A stretch of 64,000 bases of DNA from the NCBI GenBank assembly GCA_028821395.1, contig JAPPGP010000141.1, positions 17,491-81,490 of the forward strand, written 5' to 3'. The translations under genes and the position numbers were made by a program. The notes beneath the pieces were generated by a model. The model saw only the letters and a list, made by a program, of their open reading frames with translations. It did not search any database and was not told the origin of the DNA. Positions 8,898-30,307 of the stretch are shown piece after piece. The first letter of the stretch is position 1. Each line of letters opens with the position of its first letter. The DNA comes from Defluviicoccus sp. (GTDB taxonomy: Bacteria > Pseudomonadota > Alphaproteobacteria > MPNO01).

Positions 8898-10097
8898 ATG
8901 GACGCGCAACCGGACCGCTCCTTTGCGGGTCTCAGGCAGGCGGCGATCGACCTGCTGCCGGCGATCGAGGCCGATGCCGACGAAGCCGAGCGGCTCTACC
9001 ACCAGACCGACCGGGTGGCCGAGGCGATGCGGGCGCAGGGGCTCTACTCCTTCCTGATCCCCAAGGCGGCCGGCGGGGCGGAGCTTCCCTTCGTCGAGGC
9101 GATGGAGATCGTCGAGCTGGTCTCCCGCGTCGAGGGCTCGGCCGGCTGGTGCCTGATGGTCAACGGCGTGATGGGCGCATCCGCCGGCCCGTTCCTGCCC
9201 GACGCGGGGGTGGAGATCGTCTACCCCGGCGGCCGCAACTCCACGATGGCCGGGCAGGGGGTGCCGCGTGGCTATGCGCGCGAGGCGGATGGCGGCTACG
9301 TGATCTGGGGCAATTGGGGGTATGCGAGCGGCATCCAGCACGCCGACTGGGTGCATTCGGGTTGCTTCCTCACGGACGGCGGCGAGATGCGCATCGACGA
9401 GCACGGCCACCCCGACATCGTGCTCTGCCATCACCCCAAGGACACGATCGAGCTCACCGGCAACTGGGACGTGCACGGGCTCAGGGGCACCGGCAGCTTC
9501 GACTACACGCTGAAGGAGGACGAGCTCTTCGTGCCGGCGGCGTGCTGCTACAAGTTCGACAACCCGACCCAGCGGCGCGGCGGGCCGCAATACGGCGCCG
9601 GTCTGGTGGCCTCGACCACCTGGGGCCACACCAGCTGGGCGCTCGGCGTCGGCAGGCGCGCGCTCGACGAGATCGCGGCGCTCGCGCGCAGCCGCGTCGA
9701 CGCCTTCGGCCGCATGCAGGACGGGGCGGGCTTCCAGCACGCCTATGGCGAGGCCGAGGCGAAGTACCGCGCCGCCCGCGCCCTGGTCTACCAGGCCTGG
9801 GAGGACCTGTCGGAGAGCTTCGCCCGCAACCGCCAGGGCAGTATCGAGCAGATCGCCCTGATCCGGCTCGCCATGCGCCACATCCACGACGTGATCTCCG
9901 ATCTCTCGACCTTCGCCCACCGCGCCTCGCGCGGGGTGTCGCTCAGGCGGAGCGACTTGCAGCGCTGCTACCGCGACATCCACTCGGGCACCCAGCACAT
10001 CCTGCTCGCCGACGAGATCGCCCAGGCCTGCGGCAAGGTGCTGATGGGCGCCGCCGGCGAGGACGCGCAGTGGAACGTGCTCGGCCTCAGCGAGTGA
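8898..10097 (+). CDS. acyl-CoA-dehydrogenase-fold flavin-dependent monooxygenase (oxygenase component of a two-component system, predicted)
   Basis: 399-aa ORF. N-terminal LYHQTDRVAEAMRAQGLYSFLIPKAAGGAELPF and a C-terminal helical domain, as in HsaA/DszC/GraA-like ACAD type-2 proteins. GGGAGG RBS upstream. Confidence 0.75.
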   Translation: MDAQPDRSFAGLRQAAIDLLPAIEADADEAERLYHQTDRVAEAMRAQGLYSFLIPKAAGGAELPFVEAMEIVELVSRVEGSAGWCLMVNGVMGASAGPFLPDAGVEIVYPGGRNSTMAGQGVPRGYAREADGGYVIWGNWGYASGIQHADWVHSGCFLTDGGEMRIDEHGHPDIVLCHHPKDTIELTGNWDVHGLRGTGSFDYTLKEDELFVPAACCYKFDNPTQRRGGPQYGAGLVASTTWGHTSWALGVGRRALDEIAALARSRVDAFGRMQDGAGFQHAYGEAEAKYRAARALVYQAWEDLSESFARNRQGSIEQIALIRLAMRHIHDVISDLSTFAHRASRGVSLRRSDLQRCYRDIHSGTQHILLADEIAQACGKVLMGAAGEDAQWNVLGLSE

Positions 10098-10639
10098 GCC
10101 GGCACAGCCCCATCGTCGGGCGCCTCGTCGCCAGGGCGTGGTCGGACCCTGTCTTCGCCGACCGGCTGGTCGCCGATGCGACGGCGATGCTGGGCTCACT
10201 CGGCATCGCCCTGCCGGCGGGAAAGACCGTGGCTGCGGTCCAGAACACCGATACCGTCACCCACCTCGTCCTGCCGTCGCCGCGCTACGCCGAGACGGCG
10301 TCCCCCTACGCCGAGATCAAGGCGTTCGGCGAGACCTATGGCGATCCGCGCTACGCCCCGCTCGACTGGATCTCGCGCGACCCGGTGTTCATGGCGCGGT
10401 TCGAGGCCGCTCCCGCGCCGATGCTGCGAAGCTGGGGGATCGTCGTGGCGGACGGCATAACAATCTCCACGGTCCGCAACACGCCCGCGCGGGTCTGGCT
10501 GGTCCTGCCCGTCCCGCCCGGCGCCGGCGACCTGACGGACGAGTTGCTCGACGAGATTGCCGCCGGGTGGTTGCCGCCGGCGCTCCGCTACGTCTCCATC
10601 GAGGGGAAGGTGCGGCTCGATCGGTTCGCGCGGCGATGA
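10094..10639 (+). CDS. tandem nitrile-hydratase-alpha/NHLP-like repeat protein, Cys-free (function unknown)
   Basis: In-frame GTG at 10094 overlaps the upstream stop (GTGA), and its own stop overlaps the next ATG (ATGA). 181 aa. Two copies of the NHase-alpha/NHLP signature: ARAWSDPVFADRLVADATAMLGSLGIALPAGKTVAAVQNTDTVTHLVLP and DWISRDPVFMARFEAAPAPMLRSWGIVVADGITISTVRNTPARVWLVLP. No CTLCSC metal motif and no Cys at all. Confidence 0.6.
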   Translation: MSRHSPIVGRLVARAWSDPVFADRLVADATAMLGSLGIALPAGKTVAAVQNTDTVTHLVLPSPRYAETASPYAEIKAFGETYGDPRYAPLDWISRDPVFMARFEAAPAPMLRSWGIVVADGITISTVRNTPARVWLVLPVPPGAGDLTDELLDEIAAGWLPPALRYVSIEGKVRLDRFARR

Positions 10640-11391
10640 CGGAACACGCGATGGAAACCGTCGTCTACGGCTACGTCCACGGCGCATCGCTGCTCGCCGA
10701 CATCGCCCGGCCGGAGGCGGAGGGCAGGCTGCCCGTCGTCCTCTCGATCCATGGCGGGCGCTGGTATTTCGGGACGCGGCACGACACCGGCGCCATCGAT
10801 GTCCGGCAATGGGCCGGTTTCGGGTTCTTCGCGATGAGCATCGACTACCGGCTGGTCACCTGCTCGCCGGCGCCGGCGGCGTACCAGGACGTGCTCTGCG
10901 CAATCCGCTGGGTCCACGCCAATGCCGACAGATACGGCCTCGACCCGGGCAGGATCTTTCTCATCGGCATGTCGTCCGGCGGGCATCTCGCCTCGCTCGC
11001 GGCGACGCTCGGCGAGGGCCGATTTCCCAAGACCGGCGGCTGGGACGACTACCCCGCGAGCTTCCGGGCCGCGGTCTCGGTGTCGGGCGCCTACGATATC
11101 GTGAGCCTCGACTGGGGCGCGGGCTGGGCGCCGCCCGGCGAGCCCTTCCCGGACGCGCGCGAATACGCCTCCCCCATCCGCCATGTGGCGCCCGACAACG
11201 CGCCGCAGCTCATCCTCCATTCGGACGACGACCCCTCGATCCCCATCGAGCAGGTGCTGCGCATGGCCGATGCGCTGGAGGCGGCGGGCGCGCCCTATCG
11301 CTTCCGCCGCTACGCCGACCGCGGCCACATGTTCATCACCGACGAGGTGATCGCCGAGGCGCGCGACTTCATCGCCGAGCACACGGGCTAG
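10636..11391 (+). CDS. alpha/beta hydrolase (esterase/lipase-like)
   Basis: 251 aa from an internal ATG of the 10138 ORF. Oxyanion motif LSIHGGRW, nucleophile elbow GMSSGGH, C-terminal HSDDDPSIP...RGHMF. Confidence 0.8.
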   Translation: MTEHAMETVVYGYVHGASLLADIARPEAEGRLPVVLSIHGGRWYFGTRHDTGAIDVRQWAGFGFFAMSIDYRLVTCSPAPAAYQDVLCAIRWVHANADRYGLDPGRIFLIGMSSGGHLASLAATLGEGRFPKTGGWDDYPASFRAAVSVSGAYDIVSLDWGAGWAPPGEPFPDAREYASPIRHVAPDNAPQLILHSDDDPSIPIEQVLRMADALEAAGAPYRFRRYADRGHMFITDEVIAEARDFIAEHTG

Positions 11392-11461: not shown

Positions 11462-11863
11462 ATGCCCCAGACCATCCGCAAATCCGTCATGGCGCTGGTC
11501 GCCGAGGCCGACGCCCAGGTCGACAAGCTGGAAGTCGACGACGCGCTCGCGCTGCACGGCAAGGACGACGTGGTGTTCGTCGACCTCCGCGATATAAGGG
11601 AACTCGCGAAGACCGGCCGGATCGCCGGCGCGCGGCATGTCCCGCGCGGCATGCTGGAGTTCTGGATCGACCCCGAGAGCCCCTATCACAAGCCGTTCTT
11701 CGCCGAGGACAGGACCTTCGTGTTCTACTGCGCCGGCGCCTGGCGGTCGGCGCTGGCGGCCAAGACCGCCGACGACATGGGGCTCGCCCCGGTCGCCCAT
11801 CTCGCGGGCGGCATCCAGGCCTGGATCGACGCCGGCGGTCCGATCGACCCGCCGAAGAGCTGA
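11462..11863 (+). CDS. rhodanese-domain sulfurtransferase
   Basis: 133-aa ORF. Active-site loop FYCAGAWRSALAA (CxxxxxR), a single rhodanese domain, GGAGG RBS. Confidence 0.85.
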   Translation: MPQTIRKSVMALVAEADAQVDKLEVDDALALHGKDDVVFVDLRDIRELAKTGRIAGARHVPRGMLEFWIDPESPYHKPFFAEDRTFVFYCAGAWRSALAAKTADDMGLAPVAHLAGGIQAWIDAGGPIDPPKS

Positions 11864-11871
11864 AGCGGTCC

Positions 11872-12948
11872 ATGGAATTCGGCATCTTCTCCAACGGCAT
11901 CCGGCCGCATACCAGCGCCGCCCGGACCTATGACGAGGACATCCGCGAGATCGTGCTTGCCGACAGGCTCGGCTTCGGCGTCGCGTATATCAGCGAGCAT
12001 CACGGCGAGCCGCCCTATATCGGCCGCATCGACACCATCCCCGCGCCCGATCTGATGATGTGCAAGGCGGCCGGGCTCACCAGCCGCATCCGCATGGGCG
12101 CGGCGGTGAAGCTGATCCACCTGCACCACCCCGTCGACGTGGCGATCCAGGCGGCGGTGACCGACCACCTGACCGGCGGGCGCTACATCTTCGGCTTCGG
12201 CTCCGGCTTCCCGCTGCCGCTGTTCTCGGAAGAGCGCGGGCTGAGCTTCGAGGACCGCCACGAGCGCTTGCATGAGGCCCTCGACTTCGTCCTGAAATGC
12301 TGGGCGACCGACGAGCCCTTCGACTGGGACGGCAGGTACTGGCGGGGGAGAGGCGTGGTCGCGCTGCCCAAGCCCTTCGCCGGCCGGGGCATGCCGATGG
12401 CGACGGCGACCGACTCGGAGGACATGCTCGGCATCGCCGGGGCGCGCGGCTACACGCTGATCTCCGCCTTTCTCGAATCGGCGGAGCGCTTGAAGCCGAA
12501 GGCCGACCTCTACGCGGCGGCGGCAGAGGCGGCCGGCTTGCGCGACTCCCGCCGCAACATCGCGGCGTCCCGCATCGTCTACATCGCCGACAGCGAGCGC
12601 CAGGCGATCGAGGACCTGCGCCCCGCCGTGACGCACGAGATCGGCTTCCAGGCCGAGCGCGGCTTCCTCAGGATGCTCGACAAGGTCTATGGCCTCCACG
12701 TTCCCAACAACGAGCACGGCATCGAGGCGCTGGTCGAGGCCGGGTTCTACTTTCTGGGCGACGCCGATTCGGTCGCCGAGAAGATCGCGCGGTTCCACGA
12801 CGGGTCGGGCGGCTTCGGCACCTTCCTGATCGTCACCGGCAAGGATTGGGCGACCCGCGCGCATCGCGAGCGCTCGATGCGGCTGTTCATGGAGCGGGTC
12901 GCGCCGCAGCTCCGCCACCTGGCGCCCGCCGAGCCCGCGCCGGCCTGA
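11872..12948 (+). CDS. LLM-class (luciferase-like) flavin-dependent oxidoreductase
   Basis: 358 aa from the in-frame ATG at 11872. MEFGIFSNG...YISEHHGEP...GGRYIFGFGSG is typical of bacterial luciferase-like monooxygenases. Confidence 0.85.
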   Translation: MEFGIFSNGIRPHTSAARTYDEDIREIVLADRLGFGVAYISEHHGEPPYIGRIDTIPAPDLMMCKAAGLTSRIRMGAAVKLIHLHHPVDVAIQAAVTDHLTGGRYIFGFGSGFPLPLFSEERGLSFEDRHERLHEALDFVLKCWATDEPFDWDGRYWRGRGVVALPKPFAGRGMPMATATDSEDMLGIAGARGYTLISAFLESAERLKPKADLYAAAAEAAGLRDSRRNIAASRIVYIADSERQAIEDLRPAVTHEIGFQAERGFLRMLDKVYGLHVPNNEHGIEALVEAGFYFLGDADSVAEKIARFHDGSGGFGTFLIVTGKDWATRAHRERSMRLFMERVAPQLRHLAPAEPAPA

Positions 12949-12951
12949 CCG

Positions 12952-15249
12952 ATGGCGCAGCGCCTGATCGGCGAACGCATCCCGCGCCGGGAAGACCGCC
13001 GGCTGCTGACCGGCGGGGGCCGTTTCAGCGACGACGTTAATGCCCTCGGACAGGCCCATGCAGCGTTCCTGCGCTCGCCGCACGCCCATGCCGATATCCG
13101 GGGGATCGATTGCGCCGGGGCCGCGACCTTGCCGGGCGTGCTCGCGGTGCTGACCGGGCGGGACTACGCGGCGGACGGGCTTTTGCCGCTGCTCCAGTTC
13201 CACACCCCGGTCGACCACCTCGATCCCACCCGGCCGGGGCTGACGGAAGAGCAGCTTTCGCCGCTGCCCGGGCCGCCGCCGATCGCTGCCGACCGGGTGC
13301 GCCATGTCGGCCAGATCGTGGCCGTCGCGGTGGCCGAGACGAGCGCGGCCGCGCTCGATGCGCTGGAGCGGATCGCTGTCGACTACGAGCCCCTGAAGGC
13401 GGTGACCGACGCGCTCGCCGCCGCGGGGCCCGACGCGCCCCGGCTGTGGGACGGCGGCAATGTCTGCCTCCGCGCCGAGGCGGGCGACGCCCGGGCGTGC
13501 GAGGCGGCATTCCGGGCGGCCCGCCGCACCGTCTGGCTCGTGCTGCACAACCACCGGATCTACGGCTGCCCGATGGAGCCCAAATCCGCGCTCGGCGAGT
13601 TCGATCCCGGGTCGGGACGCTATACGCTGCATGTGCCGAGCCAGGGCGTCCACCGCTTCCAGCGCTCGATCGCCGCCGCCTTCGGCGTCGGCCGGGAGCG
13701 CGTCCGCATCGTCTCCGGCGATGTCGGCGGCGGCTACGGCGTGCGGTCGGCCTGCGGCAACGAGTATCCGCTGCTGCTCTGGGCGGCGCGGCGCGCGGCC
13801 CGCCCGGTCAAGTGGACCGCGAGCCGGGGCGAGACCTTCCTCTCCGACTACCACGCGCGCGACATCCGCACCGAAGGCGCGCTGGCGCTCGACGCCGAGG
13901 GCAGGATCGCGGGGCTCAGGATCGACTATCTCGGCAATGTCGGGGCGTACCCGATCTCCTTCGCGGTCCTCTCCAACCTGCTCAAGATGGCCGGGCCGCC
14001 GTACGACATCCCGGCGATGCACGTCACGGTGCAGGGCGTGTTCACCAACACCATCCCGGTCTCGGTCTATCGCGGCGCCGGGCGGCCGGAGGTGACGCAG
14101 ATCGTCGAGCGCCTGATCGACCTCGCCGCCGACGAGGCGGGGATGGACCGGGCGGCGCTGCGCCGGCGCAACCTGATCGCCCCGTCCGCGCTGCCCTACC
14201 GCTCCGGGCTCGGGCTCGACTATGACTCGGGTGCGTTCGGCGAGAATTTCGAGGCGGCGCTGCGGGACATCGACTGGGACGGTTTCCCGGCCAGGCGCGA
14301 AGCCGCTTCCGCGCGCGGCAGGCGGGCCGGGATCGGCGCCGTCGCCTATCTCGAATCGCCCGGCGCCGCGCCCTATGAGCGGACCGATGTCGCGGTCCGG
14401 CCGGACGGCAGGGTCGAGGCGGCGATCGGCACCCAGGCCTCCGGCCAGGGGCACGAGACCAGCTTCGCCCAGGTGGTCGCGGAGACGCTGGAGATTCCCA
14501 TAGAGAGCGTCGGGATCGTGTTCGGCGACACCGACCGGGCGGTCGACGGCTCGGGCTCCCACGCCGACCGGTCAATGCGGCTCGGCGGCACCATACTCTA
14601 CCGGGCCGCGCGGCGGATCGTGGACGAGGGGCGCGAGGCGGCGGCGCGCGTCCTGGAGGCCGCCACCGCCGATATCGGCTATGCCGGGGGCCGGTTCACC
14701 GTGCTCGGCACCGACCGTTCCATCGGGCTGTTCGATCTCGCCGCCGAGGCGCCGCTCGCCGCCACCGAGGAGGTCGCGTCCCGGCTGCACGCCCACCCCA
14801 ACGGCGCGGCGGCCTGCGAGGTCGAGATCGACCCCGAGACCGGGGCTCTGTCCGTGATCCGCTACGCCACCGTCGACGATGTCGGGCGCGTCATCAACCC
14901 GGCGATCGTCGAGGGCCAGGTGCATGGCGGCATCGCCCAGGGCATCGGCCAAGCGCTGTTCGAACGCACCGTCCACGACCCTGCCTCCGGGCAGCTACTC
15001 ACCGGCTCGCTCATGGATTACTGCCTGCCGCGCGCCGACGACCTGCCATCGTTCTCGGGAACCGTCGACGGGCGTCCGACGGAGAGCAACCCGCTCGGCG
15101 TCAAGGGGGCGGGCGAGACCGGAACCACCCCGGCGACGGCGGCGATCCTGAGCGCCGCCACCGACGCGCTCCGCGAGTACGGCGTGGCGCATCTTGAAAT
15201 GCCGCTGACCCCGGAGCGCATCTGGCGCGCGATCCGGGCCGCGGGCTGA
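12952..15249 (+). CDS. xanthine dehydrogenase/CO-dehydrogenase family molybdopterin-binding large subunit
   Basis: 765-aa ORF. N-terminal IPRREDRRLLTGGGRFSDDV, a SVYRGAGRPE active-site-loop region and C-terminal NPLGVKGAGETGT. No adjacent FeS or FAD subunit genes. Confidence 0.9.
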   Translation: MAQRLIGERIPRREDRRLLTGGGRFSDDVNALGQAHAAFLRSPHAHADIRGIDCAGAATLPGVLAVLTGRDYAADGLLPLLQFHTPVDHLDPTRPGLTEEQLSPLPGPPPIAADRVRHVGQIVAVAVAETSAAALDALERIAVDYEPLKAVTDALAAAGPDAPRLWDGGNVCLRAEAGDARACEAAFRAARRTVWLVLHNHRIYGCPMEPKSALGEFDPGSGRYTLHVPSQGVHRFQRSIAAAFGVGRERVRIVSGDVGGGYGVRSACGNEYPLLLWAARRAARPVKWTASRGETFLSDYHARDIRTEGALALDAEGRIAGLRIDYLGNVGAYPISFAVLSNLLKMAGPPYDIPAMHVTVQGVFTNTIPVSVYRGAGRPEVTQIVERLIDLAADEAGMDRAALRRRNLIAPSALPYRSGLGLDYDSGAFGENFEAALRDIDWDGFPARREAASARGRRAGIGAVAYLESPGAAPYERTDVAVRPDGRVEAAIGTQASGQGHETSFAQVVAETLEIPIESVGIVFGDTDRAVDGSGSHADRSMRLGGTILYRAARRIVDEGREAAARVLEAATADIGYAGGRFTVLGTDRSIGLFDLAAEAPLAATEEVASRLHAHPNGAAACEVEIDPETGALSVIRYATVDDVGRVINPAIVEGQVHGGIAQGIGQALFERTVHDPASGQLLTGSLMDYCLPRADDLPSFSGTVDGRPTESNPLGVKGAGETGTTPATAAILSAATDALREYGVAHLEMPLTPERIWRAIRAAG

Positions 15250-25577: not shown

Positions 25578-27965
25578 ATGAGGGGTGCGGCGGAGAGGCG
25601 TTTGACGGAGCCGGTTCTCGAAGGCGGCGCGATCGGCAGTTCCGCGCCTCGCATCGCCGCCCGGCGGCTCGCGCACGGGCGCGGCCGCTATACCGACGAC
25701 ATCGTGCTGCCCCGGATGCTGCACGCGGCCTTCGTGCGCAGCCCGCACGCGCATGCGCGGATCGTCCGCGTCGACGGCGCGGAGGCGGCCCGCCGGCCTG
25801 GCGTGTTCCGCGTGGTGACGGGCGCCGACCTTGCCGACATCTGCCGGCCCATGCTGGCGATCGCGGCCCATCGGCCGGGCCACAAATCCGCGCCCCAGCC
25901 GGCGATGGCGCAGGATGTCGCCTACTGGCAGGGCCAGCCCGTGGCCGCGCTGGTGGCCGAGAGCCGCGCGGCGGCCGAGGACGCGGCCGAGCTGGTGGAA
26001 GTCGAGTACGAGCCGCTCGATCCCGTTGCCGACCCGGCGGAGGCGCTCGCTCCCGGGAGTCCGGCGATCCATCCTTCGCTCGGCGACAACCTGGCGTTTG
26101 CGCACAGGATCGAGGTCGGCGATGTCGACGCCGCCTTCGACTCGGCCGCCACGGTGGTGGAGCACGATTTCGACTTCGGCCGCCACACCGCGGTCACGCT
26201 GGAGCCCCGGGTGACCATCGCCGATTACCGGCCCGCCGACGGCACGCTGGTGGTCCACCAGTCGCACCAGTCGCCTTATCAGATGCAGGAGGTCTATGCC
26301 GCCCTGCTCGGCATCGACGATCACCGCGTGCGGGTGATCTGCCCCGACGTGGGGGGCGGGTTCGGGCTCAAGATCAACGTTCACGACGACGAGATCGCGA
26401 CGGCGGCGATCGCGAGGCTCCTGGGCCGGCCGGTCAAGTTCTGCGCCGACCGCCTGGAAGCCTTCGGTGCCGACGCGCATAGCCGCGATCACACGGTGCG
26501 CGGGCGCATCGCGGTGTCGGAGGGCGGCGAGATCCTCGCCATGGAGGTCGACGACCTGTCCGCGATCGGGGCGTATACCGCCTTCATCCGCTTCGGCATC
26601 GCCGAGGGCATGATGACGATCACCAATGCCGGCGCGCCCTATTGCGTGCCGGCCTATCGCGGCGCGATGCGGGCGGCCTATGTCAACAAGCCGATCGTCG
26701 GCATGTATCGCGGCGTCGGCGTGCCGATCGCCTGCGCGGTGACCGAGCAGCTCTGCGACCTGGCCGCGCACGCAATCGGCATGGACCCGGTCGCATTCCG
26801 CCGGATCAACTACCTCGATCCCGATACCCTGCCGGGCGCTTCCGTGGGCGGCATCCAGCTCCCGCGTATCGAATTCTCGCGCGCGCTCGACCGGCTGGTC
26901 GAGACCATGGGTTATGACGCGCTCCGCGCCGAGCAGGCCGCGCTGCGCGAGCGCGGCATACATCGCGGCATCGGAGTCGCCACCTTCATTGAGCCCACCG
27001 CCTACGGCCCCGGCTATTACGGCCCGTCCGAGGCGCCGGTCTCGACCCAGGAGGGAACCACCGTCAAGCTCGAGCCGTCGGGCAGGATCCGCTGCATCAC
27101 CAGCGTCACCGACCAGGGTCAGGGCACGCTCACCGCGATCGCCCAGATCGTCGCCGACCAGCTCGGCCTCGGCATCGACGAGATCGACGTGATCGCCGGC
27201 GACAGCGCGGTCACCCCGTTCGGCGGCGGCGCCTGGGCATCGCGCGGGCTGGCGATGGGCGGCGAGGCATCGCTTGAGGCGGCGCTCGCTCTCAAGGAGA
27301 ACGTGCTCGCGATCGCCGGGCCCATGCTGCAGGCCGATCCGGCGAGCCTCGACCTGAAGCGCGGCACGGTGGTCGACCGGGACGGCGGCACGCCCCGGCT
27401 CTCGCTCGGCGAAGTCGCCCGCATCGGCCACTTCCGCCAGGACACCCTGCCCGCCGATCTCCAGCCGGAGCTCGCCGTCACCCGCCACCACGTGCCCAAC
27501 CGGGCGCATTACTACGTCGCCTACGGCGTCCTCGGCTGCCATCTCGAGCTCGACCCGGAGACCGGCTCGATAGAGCTGCTCGGGGTCTGGGTGGCCGATG
27601 AGTGTGGCCGCATCGTCAACCCGCTCCTGGTCGACGAGCAGCTGCGGGGCGGGGTCGTCCAGGGGCTCGGCGCGGCGTTCTTCGAGGAATGCGTCTATGA
27701 CGGCAGCGGGCAGCTTCTCAACGGCACGCTCGCCGACTACCTGGTGCCAATGGCGACCGACATACCCGACATCGCGACCGCCCATATCGACGGGCTGGAA
27801 AAGACCACCAGGCTCGGTGCCAAGGGGGTGGGCGAGGGGGGGACCATCGGCGCCACTGCCGCCGCCTGGCTCGCGGTCAACGATGCGCTGGCGCCCTTCG
27901 GGAAAACGGTCTCGGCGCAGCCCTTCACCCCGGAACGCATCCTCGCGGCGATCGAGGGAAGGTGA
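25578..27965 (+). CDS. xanthine dehydrogenase family molybdopterin-binding large subunit (paralog A of a tandem pair)
   Basis: 795 aa. RRLAHGRGRYTDDIVLPRMLHAAFVRSPHAHARI, GMYRGVGVP loop, C-terminal RLGAKGVGEGGTIG. Confidence 0.9.
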   Translation: MRGAAERRLTEPVLEGGAIGSSAPRIAARRLAHGRGRYTDDIVLPRMLHAAFVRSPHAHARIVRVDGAEAARRPGVFRVVTGADLADICRPMLAIAAHRPGHKSAPQPAMAQDVAYWQGQPVAALVAESRAAAEDAAELVEVEYEPLDPVADPAEALAPGSPAIHPSLGDNLAFAHRIEVGDVDAAFDSAATVVEHDFDFGRHTAVTLEPRVTIADYRPADGTLVVHQSHQSPYQMQEVYAALLGIDDHRVRVICPDVGGGFGLKINVHDDEIATAAIARLLGRPVKFCADRLEAFGADAHSRDHTVRGRIAVSEGGEILAMEVDDLSAIGAYTAFIRFGIAEGMMTITNAGAPYCVPAYRGAMRAAYVNKPIVGMYRGVGVPIACAVTEQLCDLAAHAIGMDPVAFRRINYLDPDTLPGASVGGIQLPRIEFSRALDRLVETMGYDALRAEQAALRERGIHRGIGVATFIEPTAYGPGYYGPSEAPVSTQEGTTVKLEPSGRIRCITSVTDQGQGTLTAIAQIVADQLGLGIDEIDVIAGDSAVTPFGGGAWASRGLAMGGEASLEAALALKENVLAIAGPMLQADPASLDLKRGTVVDRDGGTPRLSLGEVARIGHFRQDTLPADLQPELAVTRHHVPNRAHYYVAYGVLGCHLELDPETGSIELLGVWVADECGRIVNPLLVDEQLRGGVVQGLGAAFFEECVYDGSGQLLNGTLADYLVPMATDIPDIATAHIDGLEKTTRLGAKGVGEGGTIGATAAAWLAVNDALAPFGKTVSAQPFTPERILAAIEGR

Positions 27966-30307
27966 TGAGCGGAGCCGCGATCGGGCGTTCCGTGGCGCGC
28001 CCCAACGCGCGGCGCGCGGCCTCGGGCCGCGGCCGTCACGTCGCCGATCTCGGATTCAATCGGCTGGTCGATGTCGCCTTCGTCCGCAGCCCCTACGCTC
28101 ATGCCCGGATCGTGTCGATCGACACGGAAGAGGCGGCGGGCCAGCCGGGCGTGGTGGCGGTGCTCACCGGGGCGGAGCTCGCCGAGCGGAGCCGGCCGTG
28201 GCTGGGCACGATGAAGAACGCGCCTTCTCTCCTCTCCGTTCCGCAATACGGCATGGCGGTCGATTGCGCGCGCTGGCAGGGCGAGCCCGTCGCCGCGGTC
28301 GTCGCCGAGGGCCGGGCACGCGCCGAGGACGCGGCGGAGCGCGTCGCCATCGTCTGGGAGGAGCTTGAGGCCGTCGCCGACGTGGAGACCGCGCTCGAAG
28401 AGGGCGCCCCGATCCTGCATCCCTCGCTCGGCACCAACCGGCTGTATGAGCGCGTTGTCGACACCGGAGATGCCGCTTCCGCCTTCGCCGCCGCGGATGT
28501 CGTCGTCGAAGGCGAGTTCCGCTTCGGCCGCCATACCGGCGTGCCGCTGGAGGCGCGCGCGATCGTCGCCGATTACGACCCGGGCGACCGCAGGCTCACC
28601 CTGCACTATGGCGGGCAGGCGCCGCACATGACGCAAATCCTGTTCGCCCGGCATCTCGGGCTCGCGGAACGCGACGTCCGGGTGATCGCCTACGATGTCG
28701 GCGGCGGGTACGGCATCAAGAGCCATCACTACGGCGACGAGTTCACCGCCGCCGCGCTGGCGATGCTGCTCGCCCGCCCGGTGCGGTACTGGGCCGACCG
28801 GCTGGAGTCCTTCGTCTCCGACGTCCATGCGCGGGACCACACGGTCCGGGGCCGGCTCGCGGTGGAGAAGGACGGCCGGATCGCGGCGCTGGAGATCGAC
28901 GACCTGGTCGGCGCCGGCGCCTATTCGTCCTACCCGCGCACCAGCTCGGTCGAGGCCAACCAGGTCCTCAACGTCTCCGGCGGACCCTACGCGATCGCGA
29001 ACTATCGTGGACGCACCCGGGTCGTGTTCCAGAACAAGGTGCCGATCTCGCAATATCGCGGGGTCGGCCATCCGATCGCCATCCTGACGGTCGAGGCCCT
29101 GATCGACCGGGCCGCGACCGCGCTCGGCACCGACCCGGCGGAGCTGCGGCGGCGGAACTTCGTGCCCGACGATGCGTACCCCGTTCGCGCGCCGTCCGGC
29201 GTCGGGCTCGACGACCTGTCGCACCAGGCGTGCTTCGAAGAGCTGCTGAGGCTGATGGATTACGACACGCTCCGCGCCGACCGGGACGAGAAGCGCAGCC
29301 AGGGCGTGCTCTGCGGCATCGGGCTCGCCTCGTTCATCAAGGGCACCAACCCGGGGCCGCAGATCTACGGACCCGCGGGCGTGCCCATCTCGGCGCAGGA
29401 CGGGTGCACCGTGCGCCTCGAGCCGTCCGGCGCGGTGACCTGCCTCGCCGGCGTCACCGAGCAGGGGCAGGGCACCGAGACCATCCTCGCCCAGGTGGTC
29501 GCCCAGTCGGTCGGCGTGCCCTTCGAGGCGGTCACCGTGATCACCGGCGACACCGATGCGGTGCCCTATGGCGGCGGCACCTACGGCTCGCGCGGCGGCG
29601 GGATCGGCGGCGAGTCGGCGCGGCGCGCGGGCGAGGCGCTGCGCGACGAGATCCTCGACCTCGCGGGCGCGCTGCTCCAGGCCGAGCCCGGATCGCTCGC
29701 CCTGCGCGACGGCGCCGTGGTCGAGCGCGCCGGCGGCACCCGGCGCATGACCCTCGCCGAGCTGGGAGATCTCGCCTTCTTCCGCTGCGGCGAGTTGCCC
29801 GACGGGGTTTATCCGTCGCTCACCCAGACCCGCCGCTTCCGGGTGCCGGAATACGTGTTCACCAACGGTGCCCACGGCGCCCAAATCGAGGTCGATCCCG
29901 AGACCGGGGAGGTCCGCATTCTCGGCTACTGGGCGGTCGAGGACGGCGGGCGGCTGATCAACCCCCTGCTCGCGGAAGAGCAGCTGCGCGGCGCCATCGT
30001 CCAGGGGCTCGGCGACGCGCTCTACGAGCACAGCCTGTACGACCGCGACGGCCAGCTTCTCAACGGCACCATGGTCGACTACCTGGTGCCGATGGCGGCC
30101 GAGATGCCCGATATCGTGCTCGCCCATGTCGAGACCCCGACATCGGTCTCCGGCCTCGGCGCCAAGGGGGTGGGCGAGTCCGGCACCGCCGCCGCGCCCG
30201 GCACGGTGTTCAACGCGGTTAACGACGCGCTGGCGCCGCTCGGCGCCGCCGTGGAGGCGATTCCGATCACCCCCGAATCGGTCCTCGCCGCGCTCGGCCG
30301 CGCCTGA
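27962..30307 (+). CDS. xanthine dehydrogenase family molybdopterin-binding large subunit (paralog B of a tandem pair)
   Basis: 781 aa. The start (GTG 27962 or ATG 27965) overlaps the stop of paralog A. SQYRGVGHP loop, C-terminal GLGAKGVGESGTA. Confidence 0.9.
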   Translation: MMSGAAIGRSVARPNARRAASGRGRHVADLGFNRLVDVAFVRSPYAHARIVSIDTEEAAGQPGVVAVLTGAELAERSRPWLGTMKNAPSLLSVPQYGMAVDCARWQGEPVAAVVAEGRARAEDAAERVAIVWEELEAVADVETALEEGAPILHPSLGTNRLYERVVDTGDAASAFAAADVVVEGEFRFGRHTGVPLEARAIVADYDPGDRRLTLHYGGQAPHMTQILFARHLGLAERDVRVIAYDVGGGYGIKSHHYGDEFTAAALAMLLARPVRYWADRLESFVSDVHARDHTVRGRLAVEKDGRIAALEIDDLVGAGAYSSYPRTSSVEANQVLNVSGGPYAIANYRGRTRVVFQNKVPISQYRGVGHPIAILTVEALIDRAATALGTDPAELRRRNFVPDDAYPVRAPSGVGLDDLSHQACFEELLRLMDYDTLRADRDEKRSQGVLCGIGLASFIKGTNPGPQIYGPAGVPISAQDGCTVRLEPSGAVTCLAGVTEQGQGTETILAQVVAQSVGVPFEAVTVITGDTDAVPYGGGTYGSRGGGIGGESARRAGEALRDEILDLAGALLQAEPGSLALRDGAVVERAGGTRRMTLAELGDLAFFRCGELPDGVYPSLTQTRRFRVPEYVFTNGAHGAQIEVDPETGEVRILGYWAVEDGGRLINPLLAEEQLRGAIVQGLGDALYEHSLYDRDGQLLNGTMVDYLVPMAAEMPDIVLAHVETPTSVSGLGAKGVGESGTAAAPGTVFNAVNDALAPLGAAVEAIPITPESVLAALGRA

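Follow-up and report, generated by a model that had tools for sequence, protein, structure and literature searches.

A metal-free, armless nitrile hydratase alpha core that travels with an esterase clade in Defluviicoccus sp. and other bacteria

A 64,000-nucleotide stretch of Defluviicoccus sp. DNA (contig JAPPGP010000141.1, positions 17,491 to 81,490 of the forward strand; hereafter the window, in whose coordinates all positions are given) encodes a 181-aa protein, here called NHL, that is a metal-free core of the nitrile hydratase (NHase) alpha subunit. NHL has no counterpart of the arm with which NHase alpha embraces its beta subunit, is held under purifying selection, and travels with one clade of alpha/beta-hydrolase esterases as a two-gene module. 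The pair suggests a two-protein hydrolase that has not been described previously, in which NHL may act as a non-catalytic accessory subunit of the downstream esterase, a role to which somewhat less than an even chance is given. The gene and its parts are as follows.

10094..10639, + strand: NHL, the 181-aa, cysteine-free, NHase-alpha-fold protein under study
10118..10279, + strand: repeat 1 (residues 9-62), matched by the NHLP model and corresponding to NHase alpha ~56-108
10280..10369, + strand: replaced linker (residues 63-92, PRYAETASPYAEIKAFGETYGDPRYAPLDW), in place of the CTLCSC metal claw and predicted to form two helices
10370..10519, + strand: repeat 2 (residues 93-142), corresponding to NHase alpha ~123-175
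10520..10636, + strand: C-terminal helix DLTDELLDEIAAG and conserved 22-aa tail, corresponding to the NHLP leader end and to NHase motif 2

Relationship of NHL to nitrile hydratase alpha

The NHase alpha fold has two known roles, one as a metalloenzyme subunit and the other, when truncated, as the NHLP leader in precursors of peptides that are ribosomally synthesized and then modified post-translationally (RiPPs). The homology to both that the initial annotation had proposed from a recurring signature is supported by profile searches. Pfam NHase_alpha (PF02979) matches NHL above its gathering score (E 3.5e-15; 56.3 bits, cut-off 27.2), with residues 9-155 aligned to profile positions 41-174 of 184, and the NCBIfam NHLP model TIGR03793, a model of the 'domain' type, scores 72.1 bits (cut-off 50.9) over two stretches; TIGR04351 also matches. 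The equivalog model for NHase alpha (TIGR01323) reaches 53 bits, below its cut-off of 249.85, and over residues 7-60 only, and that for the thiocyanate hydrolase gamma subunit (TIGR03887) reaches 26.3 bits, below 291.45. TIGR03795 (NHLP-Burk) is not among the NCBIfam matches of NHL at E <= 0.01.

The two copies of the signature noticed in NHL are genuine, the halves of the protein aligning with each other at 46% identity over 46 residues (pairwise E 6e-10). The initial annotation had taken this to be a duplicated scaffold of a new kind, a view that is not sustained. When a profile of the NHL family (alignment A2) is compared with solved NHase alpha chains, its matches fall in the same two stretches, which in 7qop_A comprise residues 56-108 and 123-185; repeat 1 of that chain ends '...VVCT', where the metal motif begins, and this motif lies between the stretches. 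Because the profile matches two stretches of solved chains, genuine NHase alpha already contains the two repeats and has CTLCSC in the linker that joins them, and a novel duplication was rejected as the source of novelty.

Judged from these alignments, NHL is the usual core of NHase alpha in which the metal 'claw' has been exchanged, and what is new in it is the replacement of the linker by a longer segment free of cysteine. Repeat 1 ends in 'HLVLPS' at the point where NHase has 'HNVVVCT' (that is, 'LVLPS' replaces 'VVVCT'), and ~28 residues (64-91) then stand in place of the ~14 of the NHase claw. This region and its surroundings constitute the best-conserved part of the protein. Mean column conservation in the close family is 0.90-0.94 across residues 61-100, with residues 161-170 at 0.91, and invariant positions of the insert region include the polar residues R64, E67, S70, E80, D84, R86, R95, and D96 as well as W92. 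In the wider alignment, which extends down to 30% identity, S70, E80, Y82, R95, D96, and R102 are kept in at least 90% of sequences.

Towards the C-terminus, the NHL segment DLTDELLDEIAAG occupies the position of two motifs, GLSEEQLAALVTR of NHase and the leader-end ELSDEQLDAVAGG of NHLP, which are given as counterparts of each other in a study that also describes NHLP as NHase alpha minus its active-site region (Haft et al., 2010; PMC2887384). No Gly-Gly is found in NHL; the homologous site reads 'IAAG' before W, and the 22-aa tail that ends the protein is conserved and partly structured.

An AlphaFold2 model of NHL based on alignment A2 has a mean predicted local distance difference test score (pLDDT) of 90.7 and a predicted template modelling score (pTM) of 0.86. 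It is a compact, self-contained globule composed of a helix-helix-helix-hairpin unit that occurs twice, two insert helices (71-80 and 85-95), and a C-terminal helix, with block pLDDT values of 92 and 90 across residues 151-170 and then 62 and 38 to the C-terminus. Foldseek found 39 matches to the model at E <= 0.001, every one of them a chain of NHase alpha or of thiocyanate hydrolase gamma, NHase alpha being matched by this predicted structure at E 6e-7 with TM scores of 0.5-0.6. For 35 of the 36 entries listed, VIA-align gave Z scores of 10.5-12.3 at a root-mean-square deviation (rmsd) of 3.5-3.9 with 136-154 residues aligned; the best (Z 12.3) covers 153 residues at rmsd 3.5, and identity in the structural alignments is 21-26%. 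The match to the NHLP structure 8tb1 in the Protein Data Bank (PDB) is weak (Z 2.5). Alignments from VIA-align begin at chain residue 41-63 of NHase alpha and that from Pfam at profile position 41, and NHL is accordingly without the beta-embracing N-terminal arm (~40-55 residues) of NHase alpha.

The NHL open reading frame is real. It spans 181 codons on the + strand (10094-10639) with no internal stop, and the absence of any cysteine, and hence of CTLCSC, asserted by the initial annotation is confirmed by translation, as are the overlaps claimed for both ends: the start (GTG) shares bases with the stop (TGA) of the acyl-CoA dehydrogenase (ACAD)-fold gene at 8898-10097 (GTGA), and the stop (TGA) with the start (ATG) of the hydrolase gene at 10636-11391 (ATGA). 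The GC content of third codon positions (GC3) is 0.91, compared with 0.92-0.95 in the neighbouring genes, and the gene is single-copy in its own genome. The ratio of nonsynonymous to synonymous substitution rates (dN/dS) across 12 orthologues is 0.26-0.56; the frame is therefore under purifying selection, although the esterase (0.08-0.15) and the monooxygenase (0.11-0.22) are more tightly constrained. An alternative in-frame GTG is located upstream at 10070; an equivalent start is present in 9/10 same-genus loci, and its use would extend NHL by 'ERARPxRR...' and place ~30 nt of the frame within the 3' end of the monooxygenase gene. In databases, three homologues are annotated as 192-aa proteins with a beginning of this type. 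The short start at 10094 is favoured because loci L020 and L023 show only the short-form start nearby. RNA library X1 yielded three small contigs, two of which map to the monooxygenase gene (9396-9724) while the third is a 41-base match to the rhodanese gene, with none on NHL; Logan contigs of this library cannot show absence and so give no evidence on NHL expression either way.

A word-indexed search returned 34 proteins, of which 32 are 57-99% identical and nearly all 181 aa long, none with a name; cluster look-ups gave only 'hypothetical protein' labels, and Protein Atlas gave only low-score NHLP-like clusters. An exhaustive search of representatives at 50% identity produced 1105 matches at E <= 0.001, mostly NHLP peptides, with a single match at E <= 1e-30. 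The insert signature F/Y..Y.DPRL..L.W was detected in 11 among the 150 matches listed, at 30-46% identity to NHL, and these insert-bearing relatives make up a rare wider family. Each of the 11 further genomes from the window's genus has an orthologue, as do two of the three genomes of a second genus. Strong matches (E <= 1e-70) in a sample of 401 genomes of the class are confined to the window's own genome (G000) and to G217, a member of another family; NHL was not found in 80 relatives of G217 (1/81, which is G217 itself). A metagenome scan for the more distant NHL subgroup confirmed one of 72 pattern matches, locus L046.

Two complete NHase systems occur in G000, and NHL is a third member of the superfamily in that genome alongside them, not a replacement. 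The genuine alpha subunits, with CTLCSC, are encoded on contigs C89 (L002, L051) and C34 (L003, L050), and a PF02211 scan of the genome detected exactly two NHase beta genes, each beside a genuine alpha (C34, C89), and no beta gene near NHL or on the contig of the window. The view that NHL is not a catalytic NHase alpha is thus upheld by the missing Cys ligands, by the score of 53 against 249.85 bits, and by the lack of a nearby beta gene. What NHL shares with NHase alpha (PF02979/TIGR01323) and thiocyanate hydrolase gamma is the globular core, both repeats, and the C-terminal 'LS/TDExL' helix; the enzyme has the CxLCSC claw, the N-terminal arm, and a beta gene, whereas NHL has a two-helix insert, is armless, and is encoded with an alpha/beta hydrolase instead.

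The comparison with the NHLP/proteusin peptides (TIGR03793; e.g. 8tb1) is similarly divided. Each NHL repeat matches the NHLP model and a motif like that of the leader end is present, but the peptides have a single ~80-aa leader, whereas the two repeats and insert of NHL form a complete NHase-alpha-like globule. Gly-Gly, a variable core, paralogue expansion, and genes for maturases and exporters are proteusin traits that NHL does not share. The earlier conclusion that NHL is not a canonical NHLP precursor holds, there being neither Gly-Gly nor a Cys- or Ser/Thr-rich core, and no C39/ABC exporter, YcaO, LanM, or radical-SAM maturase was found among the Pfam-annotated neighbours (window 1-33 kb and loci L023, L024, L026, L045, and L046). 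The fused tandem NHLP-Burk peptides (TIGR03795) of Delftia and Acidovorax resemble NHL in having two NHase-related units per polypeptide; however, they are accompanied by cyclodehydratase/docking fusion genes and end in Cys, and NHL has neither feature (Haft et al., 2010; PMC2887384). NHLP domains are characterized in another report as structured, protein-like modules that use protein-protein contact to engage enzymes (PMC12537861).

Other NHLP-like sequences were encountered in these searches. Contig C29 of G000 (L004, ~1500-1670, - strand) has a single-domain NHLP-like ORF ('...FLVSRAGEDSDFRDRLLANPKETIEEEFGVTLAEGHQIHVHEDTYTATHVVLPP...') that weakly matches NHL (E 9.8e-4) and might be a conventional NHLP-type precursor. 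Among the distant hits (P0045-P0086) are many metagenomic proteins in which 2-3 tandem NHLP domains precede 'VAGG' and a core that is Cys-rich or hydrophobic, and leaders with multiple NHLP domains appear to be common among RiPP precursors.

The esterase partner and the genomic surroundings

The genes and junction that adjoin NHL are listed below.

10636..11391, + strand: alpha/beta-hydrolase (BD-FAE / Abhydrolase_3 acetyl-esterase), 251 aa, the conserved partner of NHL
10636..10639, + strand: ATGA overlap of the NHL stop and esterase start, seen in 11/11 genus-g1 loci
8898..10097, + strand: ACAD-fold (group D, HsaA/HpaB-like) flavin monooxygenase, matching Pfam Acyl-CoA_dh_2/_1/_N

An esterase gene lies directly downstream of NHL in 16/16 loci examined, which come from no fewer than four lineages whose flanks otherwise differ. 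Twelve of twelve fetched loci (10 of genus g1, 2 of genus g5) have this order; G217 encodes an NHL 48% identical to that of the window and then an esterase 77% identical, and metagenome locus L046 encodes an NHL of the ~36%-identical group and then an esterase 76% identical over 244 residues. The spacing is less constant than the order, with gaps of 13-93 nt at four distant loci as against the ATGA overlap in genus g1 (the count of 11/11 refers to genus-g1 loci, with G011 standing outside the synteny set). The partnership is also evident from the esterase side: close matches in the 401-genome class sample occur only in G000 and G217, both of which carry NHL, the next-best being 36% identical, and in a 401-genome sample of the phylum a close esterase is present in 1/401, G000 only. 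Four further pairs of NHL-like and esterase sequences, the esterases belonging to the NHL-linked clade described below, share their source and the size of the longest contig (10677, 2762, 9610, and 15060 bp), which is circumstantial.

The monooxygenase gene is a less faithful neighbour. It adjoins NHL in 10/10 genus-g1 loci, with its stop -4 to +14 nt from the NHL start, in 0/2 of genus g5, and it is absent beside NHL in G217 and L046; its score against the HsaA-like NCBIfam model is 101 bits, below the cut-off. The description of NHL as coupled between a monooxygenase and a hydrolase hence stands in part, the hydrolase link being kept everywhere and the monooxygenase link confined to genus g1. 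The 'oxidative catabolic operon' that had been given as its setting is not conserved, and the flanks differ in every lineage. In the window they comprise a TRAP transporter, a Rieske oxygenase, a rhodanese, a luciferase-like monooxygenase, and a Mo-hydroxylase; in G019, an amidase and a 2-oxoglutarate (2OG) oxygenase; in G217, an M24 peptidase, an aminotransferase, an amine oxidase, and AA_synth; and in L046, a divergent MR/MLE enzyme and CNNM.

The order of the genes located 3' of the esterase gene is conserved in the genus. They encode a rhodanese (11462-11863, active-site loop CAGAWRS), a luciferase-like monooxygenase (11872-12948), and a CoxL-like Mo-hydroxylase large subunit (12952-15249), beside which neither a small nor a medium Mo-hydroxylase subunit gene was seen. 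Two more tandem genes for CoxL-like molybdopterin large subunits, overlapping at their ends, are found at 25578-27965 and 27962-30307, followed by genes for an AMP-binding ligase and an NAD-dependent epimerase/dehydratase.

The partner belongs to a well-populated family, with 985 matches at E <= 1e-40, that evolves slowly. It scores 126.5 bits against PF20434 (BD-FAE; cut-off 26.8) and 74 bits against PF07859 (Abhydrolase_3), and also matches Peptidase_S9 (E 6.6e-16). Its motifs are HGG, GMSSG, a DDD run, and a DRGH His, and H39-G40-G41, S113, D199, and H231 are invariant in 65 esterase sequences, which points to S113, D199, and H231 as a putative catalytic triad. The nearest solved relatives are generic carboxyl and acetyl-xylan esterases, none below E 1e-16. 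A quick maximum-likelihood tree of the 65 esterases places 6/6 NHL-adjacent sequences in one clade of 26 rows (SH-aLRT 100, stem 0.37), whose members are cytoplasmic-looking and 246-260 aa long. The partner therefore has the HGG oxyanion element, the GxSxG nucleophile, and the conserved Asp and His of BD-FAE and hormone-sensitive-lipase-like acetyl esterases, but the NHL-linked clade departs from the family on its long stem, with no solved relative closer than the E value given above. No partner protein is reported in the BD-FAE literature listing, so far as its accessible entries extend. Prediction of the esterase with AlphaFold from a shallow alignment (A4) gave a pLDDT of 44.8, which is unusable.

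This family of short acetyl esterases (P0188-P0307) shows unusually strong conservation from phylum to phylum, its alphaproteobacterial members being 58-66% identical to proteins annotated 'acetyl esterase' in metagenome-assembled genomes of Verrucomicrobia and Latescibacterota. The esterases occur in two forms, one cytoplasmic-looking and of ~250 aa, the other of ~290 aa with apparent signal peptides.

Possible roles of NHL

NHL is a metal-free derivative of the NHase alpha core with both NHLP-like repeats and the C-terminal helix kept, the arm that embraces NHase beta lost, and the Cys-Ser-Cys claw exchanged for a longer two-helix insert, and it most likely no longer hydrates nitriles. It is proposed to serve as a non-catalytic specificity, lid, or regulatory subunit of the esterase, the two proteins being co-made from a translationally coupled gene pair that moves between genomes as a unit; the NHLP domains that engage enzymes offer a precedent. 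In this proposal NHL and the esterase would bind each other physically, and the conserved insert (61-100) together with residues 161-170 would provide the functional surface of NHL; the insert may do so because it is located at the former NHase active site and alpha-beta interface. A heteromeric esterase to which an NHase-alpha pseudoenzyme contributes the substrate pocket or the regulation in trans would be less radical than the substrate role considered below and still a new proposal, and its prospects are put at slightly under even.

Several observations weigh against a subunit role. Gene adjacency alone is a poor predictor of binding. No fused NHL-esterase was found among 6692 candidates in a search for longer proteins, which is weak evidence, and NHL was not seen with the 58-66%-identical esterases of other phyla; the esterase fold does not generally need NHL, since a large family is seen without it. 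NHL evolves ~3x faster than the esterase (dN/dS 0.26-0.56 vs 0.08-0.15), and only seven of 251 esterase positions are specific to the clade (8, 51, 171, 172, 200, 209, and 233), so that no docking patch is obvious.

The insert also admits a different interpretation, in which NHL is an autonomous small-molecule binder or a new enzyme that has its new site in the insert and handles what the esterase consumes or releases within the same pathway, with no stable complex. This is considered rather unlikely, although the best-conserved segment of the protein, 61-100, coincides exactly with the location of the NHase active site, polar residues from R64 to D96 are invariant in the close family, those from S70 to R102 listed above are kept in the wider alignment, and the modelled protein is compact and self-contained. 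The conserved insert residues fit a protein interface equally well, and the portability of the two genes does not separate this interpretation from the subunit model; no cofactor or ligand motif was recognised in NHL by Pfam or NCBIfam, and its dN/dS is above that expected of a typical enzyme. NHL could alternatively be a proteusin-like substrate, a double-NHLP 'leader' whose C-terminal tail is cleaved or modified by the esterase-family hydrolase in a RiPP-like manner. The TIGR03793 score and the TIGR04351 match, the alignment of DLTDELLDEIAAG with the leader-end motif, the existence among the distant hits of two-NHLP precursors with GG and a Cys-rich core (P0045, P0050, and P0063), the Peptidase_S9 match of the hydrolase, and the pairing of a fast-evolving upstream gene with a slow-evolving enzyme are all in keeping with such a role, which is nevertheless judged improbable: the tail is about as well conserved family-wide as the remainder of NHL, residues 161-170 are confidently modelled within the globule, the gene is single-copy, and the best matches of the hydrolase are carbohydrate and lipid esterases, in addition to the want of Gly-Gly, of a Cys- or Ser/Thr-rich core, and of exporter and maturase genes (C39/ABC, YcaO, LanM, radical-SAM) among the annotated neighbours. 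It is equally improbable in its detailed form, with cleavage after 'AAG' or an acyl/ester modification, the whole globule as leader, and the alpha/beta hydrolase as the sole maturase.

That NHL is a decaying, functionless relic of NHase alpha carried along with the esterase is very improbable. The catalytic residues have been lost and constraint is relaxed relative to the neighbouring genes, but dN/dS is below 0.6 in 12/12 comparisons, length does not vary (most of the 32 close homologues have 181 aa), the frame is intact across lineages to ~30% identity, the insert is highly conserved, and the fold is predicted with confidence. An accessory subunit of the esterase is the role preferred here for NHL, with the reservation already expressed.

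NHL within the nitrile hydratase alpha superfamily

NHL and its esterase represent a known fold family in a conserved genetic partnership that is undescribed. No description of NHL, or of a pair formed by an NHase-alpha-like protein and an esterase, was found in full-text literature searches, the coverage of which stops short of subscription journals, and within the same bounds the statement of the initial annotation that no described function can be assigned to the protein still applies. The NCBI rule based on TIGR03793 would probably name NHL a 'RiPP precursor', to judge from the score, a label that the present evidence does not support.

If the interpretation given here is true, NHL would represent a third fate of the NHase alpha fold, in which the complete core has its metal centre swapped for a conserved insert and is tied to an esterase in place of a beta subunit. 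If NHL and the esterase bind, an enzyme subunit would have been recruited as the pseudoenzyme partner of an unrelated hydrolase, and a widespread acetyl-esterase family would have gained a new accessory factor specific to one of its clades.

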